This document shows positions 3,185 to 19,991 of a stretch of DNA of 38,099 bases, piece by piece (the stretch's first letter is position 1; each line of letters starts with the position of its first letter). The notes beneath the pieces are model-generated. The model made no database searches. It was not told the origin of the DNA and saw only the letters and a list, made by a program, of their open reading frames with translations. A program made the translations under genes and the position numbers. Origin of the DNA: an uncultured Gammaproteobacteria bacterium (GTDB lineage: Bacteria; Patescibacteriota; Microgenomatia; PFEM01; JAPLYW01); NCBI GenBank assembly GCA_964546445.1, contig CAZJJY010000002.1:1-38099 (forward strand), read 5' to 3'.

Positions 3185-4564
3185 ATGAAGATTAACTTAC
3201 CAGCGTTTGTTGAAAAAATCCTCGATACATTTGAAAAAAACAATTATCAAATCTACATTGTTGGTGGTGGTGTTAGAGACATGATTATGGGTAAAAAACC
3301 ACTTGATTGGGACTTTACCACTAATGCCAAACCTGAAGTAATTTTAACTCTTTTTGATGACGCCTTCTATGGTAATAAATTTGGAACTGTTAGCATTCCT
3401 GACCCTAGAGAAAAAAAAGATAAATTTGGCAAGCCTGCTGTTTATGAAATAACAACCTTTCGAAAAGAAGCTGGCTATTCAGACGCTCGTCATCCAGATA
3501 AAGTTACTTGGGGAAAAACTATTGAAGATGATTTAATCCGAAGAGACTTCACTATGAACGCCATTGCTCTCAAAAAAGAAAATGGAAATTTTAAGATTAT
3601 CGATCCTCATAAAGGGCAGGAAGATATAAAGAAAAAAATAATTAGGGCTGTTGGTAAGCCAGAAACAAGATTTAAAGAAGATGCCCTACGGATGATGAGA
3701 GCTGTAAGATTAGCCACTCAACTTAGTTTTTCTATTGAAAAAGATACTTTTCAAGCCATTAAAAATAATGTTGATTTAATTGACAAGATTAGTGCTGAAA
3801 GAATAAGAGATGAACTTTTTAAACTTTTCTCCTATGAACACAATGCCGATGGCTATATGCTCTTAAGGAATTCTGGTTTAGTTGAAAAAATACTTCCAGA
3901 AACAGAAAAAGGCTTTGGTATCAACCAAAAAAGTCCTAAACGTCATCATATCTGGGATGTTGGTACTCATTCTGTAAAATCTCTCCAAGTATCTAAATCA
4001 ACCGATCCTGTTTTAAATTTAGCTATTTTGCTTCATGATGTTGGTAAACCTTTGGTAGCTCAAAAACTAAAAGACGGTACTCCAACTTTTTATAATCATG
4101 AAGTTGTTGGGGCAACTATTGCCCAAAGTATTGCCAAAAGATTAAAGCTCTCTAATAAAGATAAAAAAAGATTAGTAACTTTAGTCAGATGGCATCAATT
4201 CACTCTTAATGAAAATCAAACTGATAAAACTATTAGAAGATTTATTAAAAATGTTGGTAAAGAAAATATAGAAGATATGTTTACCTTAAGGAGGTCAGAT
4301 AGATTAGGTAGTGGAGCTAAAGAAACTTCTTGGAGATTAAAAAAATTTAAAAAGAAAATAAAAGAAGTCCAAAAACAACCATTTAAAGTAACTGATCTTA
4401 AAGTAAATGGTAAAGATGTTATAAAAACACTTAAAATTAAACCAAGCCCAACCGTAGGTAAAATCCTAAATAATCTTTTTAATGAAGTCGTCAATCACAA
4501 AGTAGAAAATAAAAGAGAGATACTCCTTAAAAGGATAAAGGAAGTTAAGAAACTTAAAATTTAA
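3185..4564 (+). CDS. cca: CCA-adding tRNA nucleotidyltransferase with HD domain
   Basis: PolyA-pol/CCA head motif IVGGGVRDMIMGKKPLDWDFTT and RRDFTMNA. C-terminal HD motif LLHDVGKP. Confidence 0.85.
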   Translation: MKINLPAFVEKILDTFEKNNYQIYIVGGGVRDMIMGKKPLDWDFTTNAKPEVILTLFDDAFYGNKFGTVSIPDPREKKDKFGKPAVYEITTFRKEAGYSDARHPDKVTWGKTIEDDLIRRDFTMNAIALKKENGNFKIIDPHKGQEDIKKKIIRAVGKPETRFKEDALRMMRAVRLATQLSFSIEKDTFQAIKNNVDLIDKISAERIRDELFKLFSYEHNADGYMLLRNSGLVEKILPETEKGFGINQKSPKRHHIWDVGTHSVKSLQVSKSTDPVLNLAILLHDVGKPLVAQKLKDGTPTFYNHEVVGATIAQSIAKRLKLSNKDKKRLVTLVRWHQFTLNENQTDKTIRRFIKNVGKENIEDMFTLRRSDRLGSGAKETSWRLKKFKKKIKEVQKQPFKVTDLKVNGKDVIKTLKIKPSPTVGKILNNLFNEVVNHKVENKREILLKRIKEVKKLKI

Positions 4565-5761
4565 TTATTTCTTTCTTGAATTTCTGTAGGAAGCTTTAAC
4601 ACTTAAAACAAATGCTCCTAGTCCAACGGTAATAAAGACGAAGTTAACAATACCGCCAATGATAGGAAGTATACTTAAAACATAATAAATTAATAATCCA
4701 ATAACCAATCCCCATCCTAAAGTATTTTTAATTTTAGAATTAGCAAGTATTTTTTGCCCAATAAAGAAAGCGACAAAAATCTTTGCAAAATAAACAAGAA
4801 GTATAAACAAAGGAATCAAAAGCATTAAGAATGGAATACCGACGATACTAACGGCTAAAAAGATAAGTAAAAAGACAAAGATAATTGGAGTTAAAATACC
4901 TACTCCTAAACTACCAAGTGGTCTTTTTTGGATAACATCAATAACTCCTTTAGTTCTCTTAGAGAAAAGATACAAGAAAAGTAAACCCAAACCAATGGCA
5001 ATTAAAAAGGCCACAAATTTAAGATAGATACTTACTGTTAAAAATCCGAAGAAAGCAAAAGGAGCAAAGTTTTTAAATAAATCCTTATCTTTTAAAAATG
5101 CTTTCTCTTTGGTTTTCTCATAATTAATTTCTCCTAAAACTATTCCTTCTTCAATCTCCACTTCTTGGGATGATTGATAATCAAAATTACCTAAAACTTG
5201 AGCCCCTTTAGCAAAATTGATATTTTCAAAAGCTCCTTTGAAATCACGATTAACTAAACTAGCAAGATTAACTTCTTGAGCATAGACAGTTAAATCTTTC
5301 CCAACAGGAGCATCTAAGCTAAACAACTGACCTCCAGCTAAAATACTTCCAGAAATTTGAGCCTCCTTACTAATAGTCAAAGCATTACCAAAAACATTTA
5401 GATTTTTACCAATAATTCCACTTATAGAAATATTATTTCCACCAATCCTCACATCATCAGTTACTTGCCCTGAAATAGTAATTGTATTGGCTCCAGCTAA
5501 TAAATCACCATTTATTGTTCCATCAATAACTATATTATTAGCTCCAGCAAAAACATCGCCATTGACGATGCCTGAAATAGTGACTGTTGTTCCACCTAAA
5601 AAAAGATCTTTATTAATAACTTCATCTTTACCAATAACAACATTAGCTTGTTTACTTTCGGCCGCATCGGTAGATACCTCTACCGCTGAAATATTTTTAC
5701 CAAAAAAAGAAAAACAGGCCACGAAGGTTAAAATGACAAAAAGAAGTTTTTTGATCATCAA
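4565..5761 (-). CDS. Membrane protein with a bactofilin-like beta-helix repeat domain and a polytopic C-terminal anchor
   Basis: N-terminal signal/anchor MMIKKLLFVILTFVACFSFFG. About seven 17-20-aa repeats (GDVFAGANNIVIDGTIN, GDLLAGANTITISGQVT, DDVRIGGNNISISGIIG and others). Roughly 4-5 hydrophobic helices in the last 170 aa. Confidence 0.6.
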   Translation of the reverse strand: MMIKKLLFVILTFVACFSFFGKNISAVEVSTDAAESKQANVVIGKDEVINKDLFLGGTTVTISGIVNGDVFAGANNIVIDGTINGDLLAGANTITISGQVTDDVRIGGNNISISGIIGKNLNVFGNALTISKEAQISGSILAGGQLFSLDAPVGKDLTVYAQEVNLASLVNRDFKGAFENINFAKGAQVLGNFDYQSSQEVEIEEGIVLGEINYEKTKEKAFLKDKDLFKNFAPFAFFGFLTVSIYLKFVAFLIAIGLGLLFLYLFSKRTKGVIDVIQKRPLGSLGVGILTPIIFVFLLIFLAVSIVGIPFLMLLIPLFILLVYFAKIFVAFFIGQKILANSKIKNTLGWGLVIGLLIYYVLSILPIIGGIVNFVFITVGLGAFVLSVKASYRNSRKK

Positions 5762-16575: not shown

Positions 16576-17601
16576 TTAATTGATTAAATTATCCAAAATT
16601 TTCCATCTTCTTTTCTTTTCTGGAGGAAGAACATCATCTTTCAGTTTAAAAGCTGCTGTTCCTTTTCTTGGAGAATAACGATTTACAAAGGCTCTATCAA
16701 AACCAACTTTTCTACATAACTTAACGGTATTTTCAAATTGTTCTTTAGTTTCTCCTGGAAAACCAACGATAATATCAGTCCCTATCTTAATATCAGGAAT
16801 CTCTTTTCTAATCTTTTTAACTAAATTAAGATAATCTTTTATTTTATAAGAACGATTCATTTTCTTTAATATCTCATCATCACCCGATTGCACAGGTAAA
16901 TGTAAATAACGATCAATCTTAGGTAACTTCATAACCTCTATAATCTCATCAGATAAATCCCAAGGATTAGAAGTTAAGAAAGAAATCTTTTCAACTCCTT
17001 TAACCCCATGAACTTTTTTTAATAAATTTGCAAAGGACTTCCCTGCCTTATCATCATAATAAGAATTAACATTCTGTCCTAATAAAACAACCTCTTTACA
17101 GCCATCCTCAACCAATCTCTCTATTTCACAAAGAATTTCATCTAAAGGAAAACTTTTTTCTTTTCCCCTTCCATAAGGGACAACGCAATAAGAACAAAAA
17201 TTATTACAACCTTTCATTATTGGAATTAAAACAGAAGTTTTATTTTTTCTTTTAGGAACAGTTGAATCAACCAATTCTCTAATCAATTTAAATTCATCAA
17301 CGTTAGGAAGTTTTTTCTTTAATTCAGAAATAGAGTAACGACGCCTATCTTCTCTAGCTGAGCCAACCATACAACCAGTCAAAATAATGTGAGGAGATTT
17401 CTTTAACTTATTTAAATTATTAACTAATCCAAAAACACGATTCTCTGCTGATTCTCTTACAGAGCAACTATTAATAACCACCAAATCAGCATCTTCTGGT
17501 TTTAAAACCAATTTATAACCTTTCTTTTCCAAAACACCAGAAATCTTTTCAGAATCTGCCTCGTTCATCTGGCAACCAAAGGTTTTAACAAAGTATTTCA
17601 T
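16576..17601 (-). CDS. MiaB-family radical-SAM methylthiotransferase, apparently lacking the TRAM domain
   Basis: MTTase N-domain [18 protein letters not shown]...NSCSVRE...TGC. Radical-SAM motif CNNFCSYCVVPYGRG. It ends at 341 aa, where a TRAM domain normally begins. Confidence 0.8.
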   Translation of the reverse strand: MKYFVKTFGCQMNEADSEKISGVLEKKGYKLVLKPEDADLVVINSCSVRESAENRVFGLVNNLNKLKKSPHIILTGCMVGSAREDRRRYSISELKKKLPNVDEFKLIRELVDSTVPKRKNKTSVLIPIMKGCNNFCSYCVVPYGRGKEKSFPLDEILCEIERLVEDGCKEVVLLGQNVNSYYDDKAGKSFANLLKKVHGVKGVEKISFLTSNPWDLSDEIIEVMKLPKIDRYLHLPVQSGDDEILKKMNRSYKIKDYLNLVKKIRKEIPDIKIGTDIIVGFPGETKEQFENTVKLCRKVGFDRAFVNRYSPRKGTAAFKLKDDVLPPEKKRRWKILDNLIN

Positions 17602-17644
17602 AGACTATATTTTAACTTATTTTTGAGGCTAAAGTAAGGAGAAA
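17526..17644. repeat. Direct repeat, left copy (5' end of the MiaB-like gene plus 43 bp upstream)
   Basis: Aligns gap-free with 19197-19315 at an offset of 1671 bp. I count 110/119 identities. Confidence 0.85.
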
Positions 17645-17743
17645 ATGAAGATTGATAAATACATAAATAAATATATTGATTATATGAAGTATGAGCGTGG
17701 TTTTGCTGAAAATACCATTATTGGGAGAAAAAAGCTCTTTTAG
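17645..17743 (+). pseudogene. Tyrosine recombinase (XerC/D / phage integrase) N-terminal fragment
   Basis: A 32-codon ORF, MKIDKYINKYIDYMKYERGFAENTIIGRKKLF-stop, preceded by AAGGAG. The YL..ERG.s.NTi pattern is typical of the integrase SAM-like N-domain. No catalytic domain follows. Confidence 0.5.
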
Positions 17744-17812: not shown

Positions 17813-17843
17813 TTGTGGTTATATATACCAAATATGGTATAAT
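17813..17843 (+). promoter_or_regulatory. Cassette promoter with an operator-like palindrome
   Basis: TTGTGG (17813-17818) and extended -10 TGgTATAAT (17835-17843). The perfect inverted repeat TATACCA-aata-TGGTATA (17824-17841) overlaps the -10. The first ATG of the cassette is only 13 nt downstream. Confidence 0.5.
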
Positions 17844-17855
17844 TGTTGAGGATGA

Positions 17856-18206
17856 ATGCAAGATGAAATTGATTATTACAAATCTCTTAATGGCAGAAAG
17901 TATGCCAAAGAGTTTTTGGACGGAATTTTTTCGTCGCATAAGCAATTATGGATTCAAATAAATACTATTTTAAAACATATCAGGAACAGGCAAAACAGGA
18001 AACGTCCGTTTACCGCCTCACTGGGTAACGGTTTATTTGAAGAAAGGGCAAGGTCTAATACATTACAAGCTAGAATAAATTTTTGCTATGATAAAGACGG
18101 AATAAAATTACTGAATGGTTATCTTAAAAATGATAGAAGAAGTATGAATAGTGGAATAGCTTTTGGAAGAAAATTATTAAAGGAAAAAAATAAAAAGGAA
18201 AAATAA
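17856..18206 (+). CDS. Gp49-like / HigB-like toxin (RelE/ParE superfamily)
   Basis: EIDYYKSLNGRKYAKEFLDGI...LGNGLFEERARSNTLQARINFCYDKDGIKLLNGYLKN...GIAFGRKLLKE follows the phage Gp49-like addiction-toxin pattern (I.YY...V..FL..L...L..GLyELR...aRI.F....i.LLhGf.K...I..A). Confidence 0.7.
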   Translation: MQDEIDYYKSLNGRKYAKEFLDGIFSSHKQLWIQINTILKHIRNRQNRKRPFTASLGNGLFEERARSNTLQARINFCYDKDGIKLLNGYLKNDRRSMNSGIAFGRKLLKEKNKKEK

Positions 18207-18208
18207 AA

Positions 18209-18631
18209 ATGAAAAATAGTTATTATAAAGATATCTCTAAAAAGGTTTCAAGCGATTCAAGTTTAAAAAAAGAACTAAAAGATGCAGAAAAAGCTGTTGC
18301 CATTGCTCAACAATTATATAATTTAAGAAAAAATAAAGGCTTAACTCAAACACAATTCGCTAAACTTATTGGTGTTAGTCAACCAAATATAGCTAGATTA
18401 GAAAGTGGAGATTATAAAAGTTATTCTCTGAGGACTCTTAACAAAGCTGCTGATGCTCTAGATTCTAATGTTGAAGTTAGAATTACACCTAAAGAAACCA
18501 AAACATATAAACAAGTTTGGGATATTCCTTCAGTTAAGATTTCTTTAGAAAAAACGGTTAAAAAAACGGATACTAAAGACGTGTCTAAAAATTTTAAAAT
18601 ATCTGGTTTTTTAGAAAATTACGCAATATGA
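18209..18631 (+). CDS. XRE-family HTH antitoxin-like protein with a C-terminal extension of about 50 aa
   Basis: The HTH is LRKNKGLTQTQFAKLIGVSQPNIARLESG. The gene starts 2 nt after the toxin stop. Residues from about 92 to 140 lie beyond the HTH domain. Confidence 0.75.
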   Translation: MKNSYYKDISKKVSSDSSLKKELKDAEKAVAIAQQLYNLRKNKGLTQTQFAKLIGVSQPNIARLESGDYKSYSLRTLNKAADALDSNVEVRITPKETKTYKQVWDIPSVKISLEKTVKKTDTKDVSKNFKISGFLENYAI

Positions 18632-19110
18632 AAATAAAACACATATGGTCAGTTTTATGTAAGGAAAGTGTAATCAATCAAGATGATAACACTATCTCTT
18701 TACATGGAATATTAGAGAAACTCAGCTCAACACTAAAACCAATAAATAATCCAAAAACAACTGATTTAAAAAAACAAAAAAAGATTGTATTTCCTATCAG
18801 TTATGAAATAGTAAGTTTTTGGACTAAGGAATTAAGTAAAGAAATAAATCTTAATATTAGTATCAAATTGATTGACCCCAAAGGAAATATATTAGAAAAG
18901 ATAATAAATGAAGCAAAATTTCCAAAAGAAAGTAAAAGATTAAGAACTAGATTAAAAGTGCAAGGTCTTCCAGTATCAGAAAATGGTATGTATTTATTTA
19001 AAGTATCTGTTAAATCAGAGAAAGAAAAAAAATATACTATTGTGTCAGAAATCCCATTAGAAGTGCAGTATAAAATTATTCCTGATAATAAAAATACTCC
19101 GCCTAATTAA
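18628..19110 (+). CDS. Uncharacterised 160-aa protein, third cassette gene
   Basis: ATGA overlap with the antitoxin stop. No signal peptide, TM segment or catalytic motif is visible. The alternating hydrophobic pattern suggests a beta-rich fold. It loosely recalls small DUF-type proteins (possibly DUF6941), unverified. Confidence 0.6.
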   Translation: MKIKHIWSVLCKESVINQDDNTISLHGILEKLSSTLKPINNPKTTDLKKQKKIVFPISYEIVSFWTKELSKEINLNISIKLIDPKGNILEKIINEAKFPKESKRLRTRLKVQGLPVSENGMYLFKVSVKSEKEKKYTIVSEIPLEVQYKIIPDNKNTPPN

Positions 19111-19196: not shown

Positions 19197-19272
19197 TTTC
19201 CAAAACACCAGAAATCTTTTCAGAATCTGCCTCATTCATCTGACAGCCAAAAGTCTTAACAAAGTATTTCAT
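19197..19272 (-). pseudogene. Orphan 5' fragment of a MiaB-like gene
   Basis: Reads [25 protein letters not shown], identical in protein to codons 1-25 of the intact gene. It then diverges and stops within 8 codons. Confidence 0.75.
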
Positions 19273-19315
19273 AACCTATATTTTAACCTATTTTTGAGGC
19301 TAAAGTAAGAAGAAA
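19197..19315. repeat. Direct repeat, right copy
   Basis: Matches 17526-17644, with 9 substitutions and no gaps. Confidence 0.85.
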
Positions 19316-19350: not shown

Positions 19351-19991
19351 ATGGATGAAAAAAATAACTCTTCCGGACTTAAATTTCACCAACTATCTGA
19401 AGAAGCGAGAGAAAAAGACAATCATCTCGAGGCTTTAAAATTTATTGAAGAGGCCATCTTTAATTACCAGAAAGAAAAAGATTATTCTAGTCTTGTTAAA
19501 GCTATGCTATTTTAGCTCAAAAAGATTCCGAAGCAAGTCTTTCTATTGCTGAAAAATATAATCTTACAGAAATAATTGGTTCTTCTTATTTTAATCTTGG
19601 TAAGACAGCCATGCTTTTCAAGAGCTATAAAGAGGCTATAAAACAATATGAATTAGCCATTGAAAAATATCATGGAACTAATACAGAAAAGGGAGATTAT
19701 TATTATCATTTAGGCGAAGCCTTCTTTAAAGACAATCAAAAAGAAAAAGGTAAAGAAACAATACTCAAGGGATTAAAACAAATAGAAGATTATGCTGACG
19801 AAGTTGATCCATTCCTTGTACATGTATGGTCTTCAGGCTGTCATATATATTTAGCAAAACTATTAAAAGAAGATAACCCTCAAGAAGCAAAAGAAAGTTT
19901 TGATAAAGCAAAAGCAATTATTGACTCCGACGATAAACTTATTATTCGTAAAAGACAAATAAAAGAATTGGCTAAAGATTTTGAACAATAA
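19351..19991 (+). pseudogene. TPR-like helical-repeat protein, interrupted by a frameshift near 19500-19512
   Basis: Frame A (ATG 19351) stops at TAG 19513-19515. Frame B is open from 19500 and runs to 19991. The joined product of about 210 aa has repeated A-x-x-Y/F...G...A TPR-like helices. The pattern is consistent with a 1-nt deletion. Confidence 0.6.

Follow-up and report, generated by a model that had tools for sequence, protein, structure and literature searches.

Organization of the three-gene cassette

The DNA analyzed here (the window) is a stretch of 38,099 nucleotides, positions 1 to 38,099 of contig CAZJJY010000002.1 in GenBank assembly GCA_964546445.1, from an uncultured bacterium assigned to the Patescibacteriota in the GTDB taxonomy. 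Three genes on its plus strand form a compact cassette at positions 17856 to 19110, in which gene 1 encodes a putative HigB/Gp49-type toxin, gene 2 an XRE-family helix-turn-helix (HTH) antitoxin, and gene 3 a protein assigned, as a divergent member, to the DUF6941 family. An earlier note on this DNA had likened the cassette to toxin-antitoxin-chaperone (TAC) modules. Comparative sequence evidence supports a layout like that of TACs, with a tail extension on the antitoxin and, alongside it, a dedicated third protein other than SecB: homologues of gene 3 are linked to antitoxin genes, a motif at the tip of the antitoxin tail tracks the gene 3 clade, and the predicted fold of the third protein is all-beta.

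The positions given earlier for the three plus-strand open reading frames (ORFs) were confirmed. Gene 1 (17856-18206, plus strand, 116 amino acids [aa]) is separated by a 2-nt gap (18207-18208) from gene 2 (18209-18631, plus strand, 140 aa), the stop codon of which overlaps the start codon of gene 3 (18628-19110, plus strand, 160 aa) in an ATGA sequence at 18628-18631. No Shine-Dalgarno-like sequence precedes gene 3 in the window. Just 5' of gene 1 lies a perfect 7-nt inverted repeat, TATACCA-N4-TGGTATA (17824-17841), which reads as a candidate operator for the HTH antitoxin and overlaps an extended -10-like element, TGGTATAAT, at 17835-17843. Promoter-like sites occurred at chance level in our scan (10 found versus 9.9 expected), and neither promoter nor terminator scans returned numbers above chance; the earlier suggestion that the cassette is governed by a single promoter/operator was thus not verified.

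On its own, gene 1 scores below the Pfam cut-off for Gp49 (19.4 bits, E = 1.1e-3; cut-off, 23.9 bits), and Gp49 is matched in 34 of 70 positional equivalents of gene 1. When gene 1 was combined with 24 positional orthologues into a profile (25 sequences), the profile gave a full-length match to Streptococcus pneumoniae HigB (6af3; E = 8.7e-16) and a match to Mycobacterium tuberculosis HigB1, the classical TAC toxin (7nbu/7awk; E of about 2e-5). Gene 1 also matches phrog_2523 in PHROGs (E = 3.8e-9), and the only invariant columns in the orthologue alignment are R73 and K91. Gene 1 is therefore classed, by sequence membership, as a HigB/Gp49-type toxin of the RelE/ParE superfamily, on account of the profile matches to HigB structures and not of its own Pfam score. 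Gene 2, directly after the toxin, carries a Cro/C1-type HTH (HTH_3 at residues 36-87, E = 4e-12; HTH_37, E = 1.4e-10), and the two genes accordingly correspond to the HigB/Gp49-XRE pair recognized in the earlier note. A PADLOC search for defence systems returned only generic HTH matches, all to gene 2, and no informative match to gene 1 or gene 3.

The third protein and the DUF6941 family

Gene 3 had been regarded as belonging to no family, a description that no longer holds. It matches the Pfam family DUF6941 (PF22091) at 22.9 bits, below the 27-bit cut-off. Its 89 close homologues (40-67% identity, 150-160 aa) include many that carry PF22091 at 40-52% identity, and because of these gene 3 is placed, by transitivity of sequence, as a divergent DUF6941 member. 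An exhaustive profile search starting from gene 3 recovered 3,053 clusters (50% identity) at E ≤ 1e-3, 1,791 of them at E ≤ 1e-10; all are single-domain proteins of about 140 to 165 aa, named in the sources as hypothetical protein and once as DUF6941. NCBIfam and PHROGs hold no family for gene 3, searches gave no significant enzyme, toxin or PADLOC match, and no solved structure was found among its sequence relatives.

The AlphaFold2 model of gene 3, a confident one (predicted local distance difference test score [pLDDT], 88.9; predicted template modeling score, 0.81), has nine beta strands and no helix, which makes the modeled fold an all-beta sandwich. Five residues are invariant (His5, Glu30, Glu60, Arg106 and Arg108), and the conserved positions fall on strand 1 (H5, I6 and W7), strand 4 (E60), strand 7, where R104, R106, R108 and K110 alternate, and strand 8 (Y122). 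The best structural matches overall, with template modeling (TM) scores of 0.57-0.71 and a root mean square deviation of about 4 Å, are uncharacterized proteins from phages, 134-164 aa in length (BFVD entries A0A2H4JCJ7, A0A8S5TTK3 and A0A2P1JU14, the last from Anoxybacillus phage A403). A0A2H4JCJ7 and A0A2P1JU14 share the fold of gene 3 without a sequence-level match in phage and plasmid collections; no relatives of gene 3 were found in phage and plasmid records searched by tblastn with family members, or in a scan of IMG/VR contigs. In the Protein Data Bank (PDB), the best Foldseek matches are the beta sandwiches of PDE6-delta and UNC119 (E of about 1e-4, TM scores of 0.40-0.50, 10-16% identity).

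Homology of gene 3 to SecB was considered and rejected. There was no Pfam SecB match at E ≤ 1, the model is all-beta, SecB was absent from the top 50 PDB fold matches, and an hhalign comparison with Escherichia coli SecB gave a probability of 0.13%. These results bear out the earlier observation that the third protein shows no SecB-like sequence.

Gene neighbourhoods of gene 3 homologues

Neighbourhoods were sampled by scanning one genome per species (29 loci) and Joint Genome Institute (JGI) metagenomes (80 loci), and gene order was counted over the 78 non-identical loci for which 500 nt or more of upstream sequence was available. Genomic matches come mainly from metagenome-assembled genomes of Patescibacteria, or candidate phyla radiation (CPR) bacteria, including Daviesbacteria, Gottesmanbacteria, Moranbacteria, WWE3, Saccharibacteria and others, with a few homologues from other phyla (Planctomycetota, Dehalococcoidales and Syntrophorhabdus).

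Linkage to toxin-antitoxin (TA) pairs was a test named beforehand. The gene 3 homologue directly follows an antitoxin-type gene on the same strand in 71 of the 78 loci (91%), and the linkage therefore holds. This antitoxin is of the XRE-HTH type in 45 loci, DUF4926 in 18, DUF2283 in 5 and HicB in 3. A Gp49/HigB-like toxin gene lies 5' of the antitoxin gene in 42 of 47 XRE loci, the other five having no classifiable upstream toxin ORF, mostly at contig ends; DUF6883 is the upstream toxin in 15 loci, and HicA precedes HicB in 2. A recent preprint has placed DUF6883 among the BECR RNases, with DUF4926 as the immunity partner (bioRxiv 10.64898/2026.08.28.747851). Independent gene calls with precomputed Pfam matches gave identical trios. 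The antitoxin and gene 3 homologue are separated by 41 nt or less in 77 of 79 loci, and 34 of the 79 have the ATGA stop/start overlap. There is thus strong linkage of gene 3 homologues to TA pairs, across at least four unrelated TA families. The finding is more general than the earlier note could see from one locus, extending to about 100 related loci and at least four kinds of antitoxin.

At locus L018 (2622-4166), the two genes before the gene 3 homologue encode an HTH-Panacea (PanA-type) antitoxin (227 aa) and a toxin-like protein (130 aa); the pair, in which the antitoxin gene comes first, would represent a fifth type of TA. The neighbours of three homologues (L026, L068 and L089) were unclassified. 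Two loci (L102, 1459-1689; L103, 1037-1267) have truncated, 76-aa gene 3 homologues after a 159-aa XRE antitoxin and look like decayed copies. In a Daviesbacteria-like genome (L003, 3189-8545), the cassette sits between rpsL-rpsG and fusA, inside the conserved str operon.

The antitoxin tail and its relation to gene 3

The AlphaFold2 model of gene 2, built from a shallow alignment of 12 sequences, is folded over residues 1-95 (pLDDT of 75-90 for residues 11-90) and falls below a pLDDT of 50 over residues 96-140. The roughly 50 extra C-terminal residues remarked on earlier are therefore real, and these last 45 residues (encoded at 18494-18628, plus strand) are predicted to form a disordered tail. 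Close homologues of gene 2 conserve two aromatic patches in this region, QVW.I near residue 112 and a terminal F(Y).NYAI, which in the window reads F.ENYAI (..FLENYAI) and is encoded at 18608-18628. Tails of 40-70 aa past the Pfam domain are present in all antitoxin types: the domain ends at residue 60-71 of 104-139 in DUF4926 antitoxins, at residue 57-60 of 95-105 in DUF2283 antitoxins, near residue 104 of 158-161 in HicB antitoxins, and near residue 90 of 140-158 in XRE antitoxins.

We defined a terminal motif as an aromatic residue at positions -9 to -3 together with an aliphatic final residue. The gene 3 clade to which the window belongs comprises 29 loci, in which the antitoxin is of the DUF4926 type in 16 and of the XRE type in 13. 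The motif is present in 26 of these 29 tails, for example as FLENYAI, FRYPIAAL, FNYPVATI, FYYQNL or FSYATL. In the other large gene 3 clade (20 loci, mostly XRE), the motif is found in 2 of 20 tails, which have ends such as ..KTNTNTINK and ..ESIIIK. Among XRE antitoxins alone, 11 of 13 tails carry the motif in the clade of the window versus 1 of 17 in the other clade (Fisher P = 1.5e-5). As read from these sequences, the terminal motif therefore varies with the clade of gene 3 rather than with the family or fold of the antitoxin, as would be expected if gene 3 reads the tail. A test of whole-tail homology between DUF4926 and XRE tails with a profile hidden Markov model (HMM) was weak and gave a collective enrichment only, with 8 of 13 same-clade XRE tails versus 1 of 17 other-clade tails scoring above the 95th percentile of shuffled sequences.

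That the motif is a by-product of a Shine-Dalgarno sequence or of the ATGA overlap was ruled out. In the clade of the window, 27 of 29 loci have no Shine-Dalgarno-like sequence before gene 3, and where the ATGA overlap occurs, the final sense codon of the antitoxin gene is TTA, ATA or CTA in 27 of 34 cases and never AAA or GAA, despite the AT-rich genomes. The nearest relative of gene 2 that lacks a gene 3 (P0104; 45-54% identity over the HTH, with the same VEIRITPK boundary) belongs to a plain two-gene Gp49-XRE pair and has a short basic tail in which the motif is absent.

Two further homologues of gene 2 differ in the tail region. One (P0090) is a 92%-identical variant with frameshifted sequence in place of the tail, and the other (P0093) joins a truncated segment resembling gene 1 to gene 2 in one 212-aa protein; each may be a natural variant or a product of assembly, with an altered tail.

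Comparison with known systems and proposed mechanism

To our knowledge, control of a TA pair by a dedicated third protein that acts on a portable tail is well understood only for TAC systems, and the known examples all use SecB. TAC systems have also been shown to act as phage sensors. SecB-type TACs combine modularly with HigBA, HicAB and MqsRA pairs (PMC5105189), and they set the precedent for partner specificity, for a C-terminal degron and for a portable tail (ChAD) bearing aromatic motifs (PMC5105189; bioRxiv 10.1101/2024.02.24.581848). The chaperone binds the aromatic motifs of the ChAD, a C-terminal dipeptide can serve as a ClpX degron, and the toxin can be triggered by a phage protein that competes with the ChAD (bioRxiv 10.1101/2024.02.24.581848).

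The window cassette shares with SecB-type TACs (M. tuberculosis HigB1-HigA1-SecBTA, Rv1955-1957; E. coli HigBAC and CmdTAC) the order of toxin, antitoxin and third gene, a toxin of the same HigB/Gp49 family as M. tuberculosis HigB1, an antitoxin with a C-terminal extension that is predicted to be disordered and holds aromatic motifs like the ChAD, and a tail motif that appears, on sequence-level evidence for the DUF6941 cassettes, to be partner specific. In both cases the family of the third gene is joined to several unrelated TA families, HigBA and HicAB being common to the two (PMC5105189). The systems differ in that the third protein here, a putative chaperone, is modeled with nine strands and no helix, whereas SecB has an alpha/beta fold; in that DUF6883/DUF4926 and DUF2283 pairs are among the partners of DUF6941 but have not been reported for TAC; and in that DUF6941 cassettes occur mainly in Patescibacteria/CPR bacteria. 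The tested sequence-level features of a TAC are thus present, but the cassette should not be counted as a TAC member because its third protein is not SecB.

Two other comparisons are instructive. The Panacea domain (PanA, DUF4065) is likewise a portable module found across many unrelated toxin families, with modular shuffling of TA pairs; however, it is the antitoxin domain itself, whereas DUF6941 is a separate third protein after the antitoxin, and the two co-occur at L018. PDE6-delta and UNC119, GDI-like solubilizing factors of about 150 aa with an Ig-like beta-sandwich fold, accommodate a terminal segment of a client in a hydrophobic pocket, but they are eukaryotic and bind lipidated termini, and the match is weak, with no evidence of homology.

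We favor, with moderate confidence, the reading that the cassette is a type II TA module with a third component, built on a TAC-like design in which a protein unrelated to SecB binds the antitoxin tail. On this reading, gene 1 would be a HigB-type ribosome-dependent mRNA endonuclease, and gene 2 would neutralize it and probably act as an autorepressor. The tail of gene 2, predicted to be disordered, with aromatic patches and an end in which an aromatic residue is followed by a C-terminal Ile or Leu, would make the antitoxin dependent on the DUF6941 protein. Since gene 3 lacks a Shine-Dalgarno sequence, it would be translated by termination-reinitiation at the antitoxin stop codon, and its synthesis would be tied to that of the antitoxin. 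The gene 3 protein would then bind the tail, perhaps through its conserved face, and keep the antitoxin soluble or shielded from proteolysis, so that neutralization would need gene 3; its loss or titration, for example by a phage- or stress-derived ligand competing for the site, would free the toxin. What we infer from the comparisons above is that gene 3 would bind the tail, that its effect would be protective, that it might act as a sensor and where its binding face would lie.

Several observations weigh against this proposal. About 9% of the loci have no classical TA pair. Within them, a sub-branch of gene 3 homologues with the N terminus MQHIWSVLCQ.SSIDFETNL (L083, L094 and L101) has no TA pair upstream, and in two of its members (L094, 1880-3939; L101, 3001-5049) the gene 3 homologue is followed by a 526- to 528-aa DUF6119 protein (E of about 1e-127); at L083 (2088-2528), the downstream sequence is too short to show such a neighbour. 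An orphan homologue (L126, 2001-2456) lies downstream of AbiEii and an AbiEi-like gene with a 196-nt upstream gap, and a gene for a small membrane protein stands 3' of it. Together with the Panacea-type locus (L018) and the three loci with unclassified neighbours, these exceptions give a hint that DUF6941 may serve conflict systems more widely as an accessory. Tails in the second large clade of gene 3 lack the aromatic C-terminal motif; any rule of tail recognition would therefore be clade-specific and is undefined for that clade. Co-variation of motif and clade could partly stem from co-inheritance of neighbouring genes, the relatives without gene 3 that were compared come from one clade only, and no single sequence reached significance when whole tails of XRE and DUF4926 antitoxins were compared by HMM. 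The resemblance of the modeled fold to PDE6-delta and UNC119, which are peptide- or lipid-binding sandwiches, is also weak at TM scores of 0.40-0.50.

The gene 3 protein might instead bind the tail with the opposite outcome, as an adaptor or anti-antitoxin that hands the tail to a protease or sequesters the antitoxin and so promotes release of the toxin; SspB, for instance, is an adaptor that delivers ssrA-tagged substrates to a protease. All of the evidence that links the tail to gene 3 fits such a role equally well, and the aliphatic end after an aromatic patch (..FLENYAI) resembles ssrA or Val-Ala/Ala-Ala degrons (bioRxiv 10.1101/2024.02.24.581848). We nevertheless regard it as unlikely, since an obligatorily co-translated destabilizer of the antitoxin would make the cassette self-toxic, the ATGA coupling without a Shine-Dalgarno sequence ties gene 3 one-to-one to antitoxin synthesis, and the third protein is protective in TAC, the known analogue. 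Alternatively, gene 3 might be only a co-transcribed passenger or an accessory regulator, such as a co-repressor, that makes no specific contact with the tail, and the tails would be unrelated low-complexity extensions. Disordered tails are indeed common, whole-tail homology across antitoxin families is weak, and the second gene 3 clade has no clear tail motif. Such a passenger would have to be reconciled, however, with the association of gene 3, in 91% of loci, with tail-bearing antitoxins from four families, with the overlap of its start with the antitoxin stop in 34 of 79 loci, with the co-variation of motif and gene 3 clade (P = 1.5e-5), and with a nearest two-gene relative that lacks both the tail motif and gene 3, and we consider it unlikely.

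The earlier note had also raised the converse possibility, that gene 3 is the effector and the TA-like pair its regulator, and this gained little support; in a broader form, gene 3 would be an effector, a second toxin or a general sensor of conflict systems. The sub-branch that precedes DUF6119 proteins without a TA pair speaks for such a role, as do the lone gene 3 homologue near AbiEii at one locus and the Panacea-type TA upstream at another, and the five invariant residues (His5, Glu30, Glu60, Arg106 and Arg108) could in principle form an active site. Each pair, however, already has a recognized toxin, whether HigB-like, DUF6883 (bioRxiv 10.64898/2026.08.28.747851) or HicA; gene 3 itself is an all-beta sandwich of 150 aa that matches no enzyme, toxin or PADLOC entry significantly; and the tracking of the gene 3 clade by the tail motif on unrelated antitoxins would be left unexplained. 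An effector role is in our judgment improbable, and we retain binding of the antitoxin tail by a protective third protein as the preferred reading.

A wider form of this preferred reading is more tentative, and we offer it as a possibility that falls short of being probable. DUF6941 could be an evolutionarily independent second family of TA "addiction" partners or sensors, which clamps a portable tail on at least four antitoxin folds, replaces SecB in lineages without SecB (mainly Patescibacteria/CPR bacteria), is also wired to effectors such as DUF6119, and acts as a decoy-type infection sensor in the manner of HigBAC and CmdTAC, with a ligand that competes with the antitoxin tail. If DUF6941 indeed does the job that SecB does in TACs, control by a tail plus its keeper would have evolved more than once, and a Pfam domain of unknown function with thousands of members would acquire a function. 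It would also supply a compact, graftable pair of peptide and binder for synthetic biology and offer insight into the stress or phage defence of ultra-small CPR bacteria, which are hard to study experimentally. In literature coverage that did not extend to most subscription journals, we found no paper on DUF6941/PF22091 or on a keeper of antitoxin tails other than SecB, and searches on CPR TA systems and on non-SecB third components gave no description of the cassette; within this coverage, the trio thus stands, as the earlier note supposed, as a combination for which no publication was found.

Direct repeats and genomic context

The genes flanking the cassette are housekeeping genes, encoding RNase Y, HU, a MiaB-like radical-SAM protein, MiaA and rubrerythrin (precomputed annotation of identical contigs). 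The housekeeping character of the flanks is thereby confirmed, but the description of the window as minus-strand is not, as it has further plus-strand genes. The GC fraction is 0.25-0.28 across the cassette versus 0.30-0.36 in the flanks.

A pair of 119-nt direct repeats, absent from the earlier note, brackets the cassette; the copies are 92% identical and have sharp ends. The left copy (17526-17644) comprises 43 nt upstream of the intact MiaB-like gene (16576-17601, minus strand) together with 76 nt from the start of that gene. The right copy (19197-19315) duplicates this 5' end, encoding the first 25 residues of the MiaB-like protein before the frame stops after 32 codons. The five differences between the copies in the coding part are all synonymous, which suggests that a functional homologue was the source of the second copy, as is seen at the termini of elements inserted into a gene's 5' end. 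Because the repeats duplicate the 5' end of miaB, the cassette probably arrived as an integrated element, or is the remains of one, with the repeats as att-like sites. No integrase is present, and no empty site was found among 12 contigs with an identical MiaB-like protein, all 12 of which carry the cassette.

A 32-codon ORF, MKIDKYINKYIDYMKYERGFAENTIIGRKKLF, lies just inside the left repeat (17645-17743, plus strand), and some contigs have it annotated as a gene. It has no Pfam match and no similarity to ORFs in the fetched loci, and the idea that it is a remnant of the N terminus of a tyrosine recombinase is accordingly unsupported. Just outside the right repeat, two plus-strand ORFs without a Pfam match (19351-19515, 54 aa; 19611-19991, 126 aa) may each represent one half of a single disrupted gene that encodes helical repeats. 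At another Gp49-XRE-DUF6941 cassette (L010), a 23-nt direct repeat with 96% identity between its copies (4025-4047 and 5479-5501) surrounds the genes.

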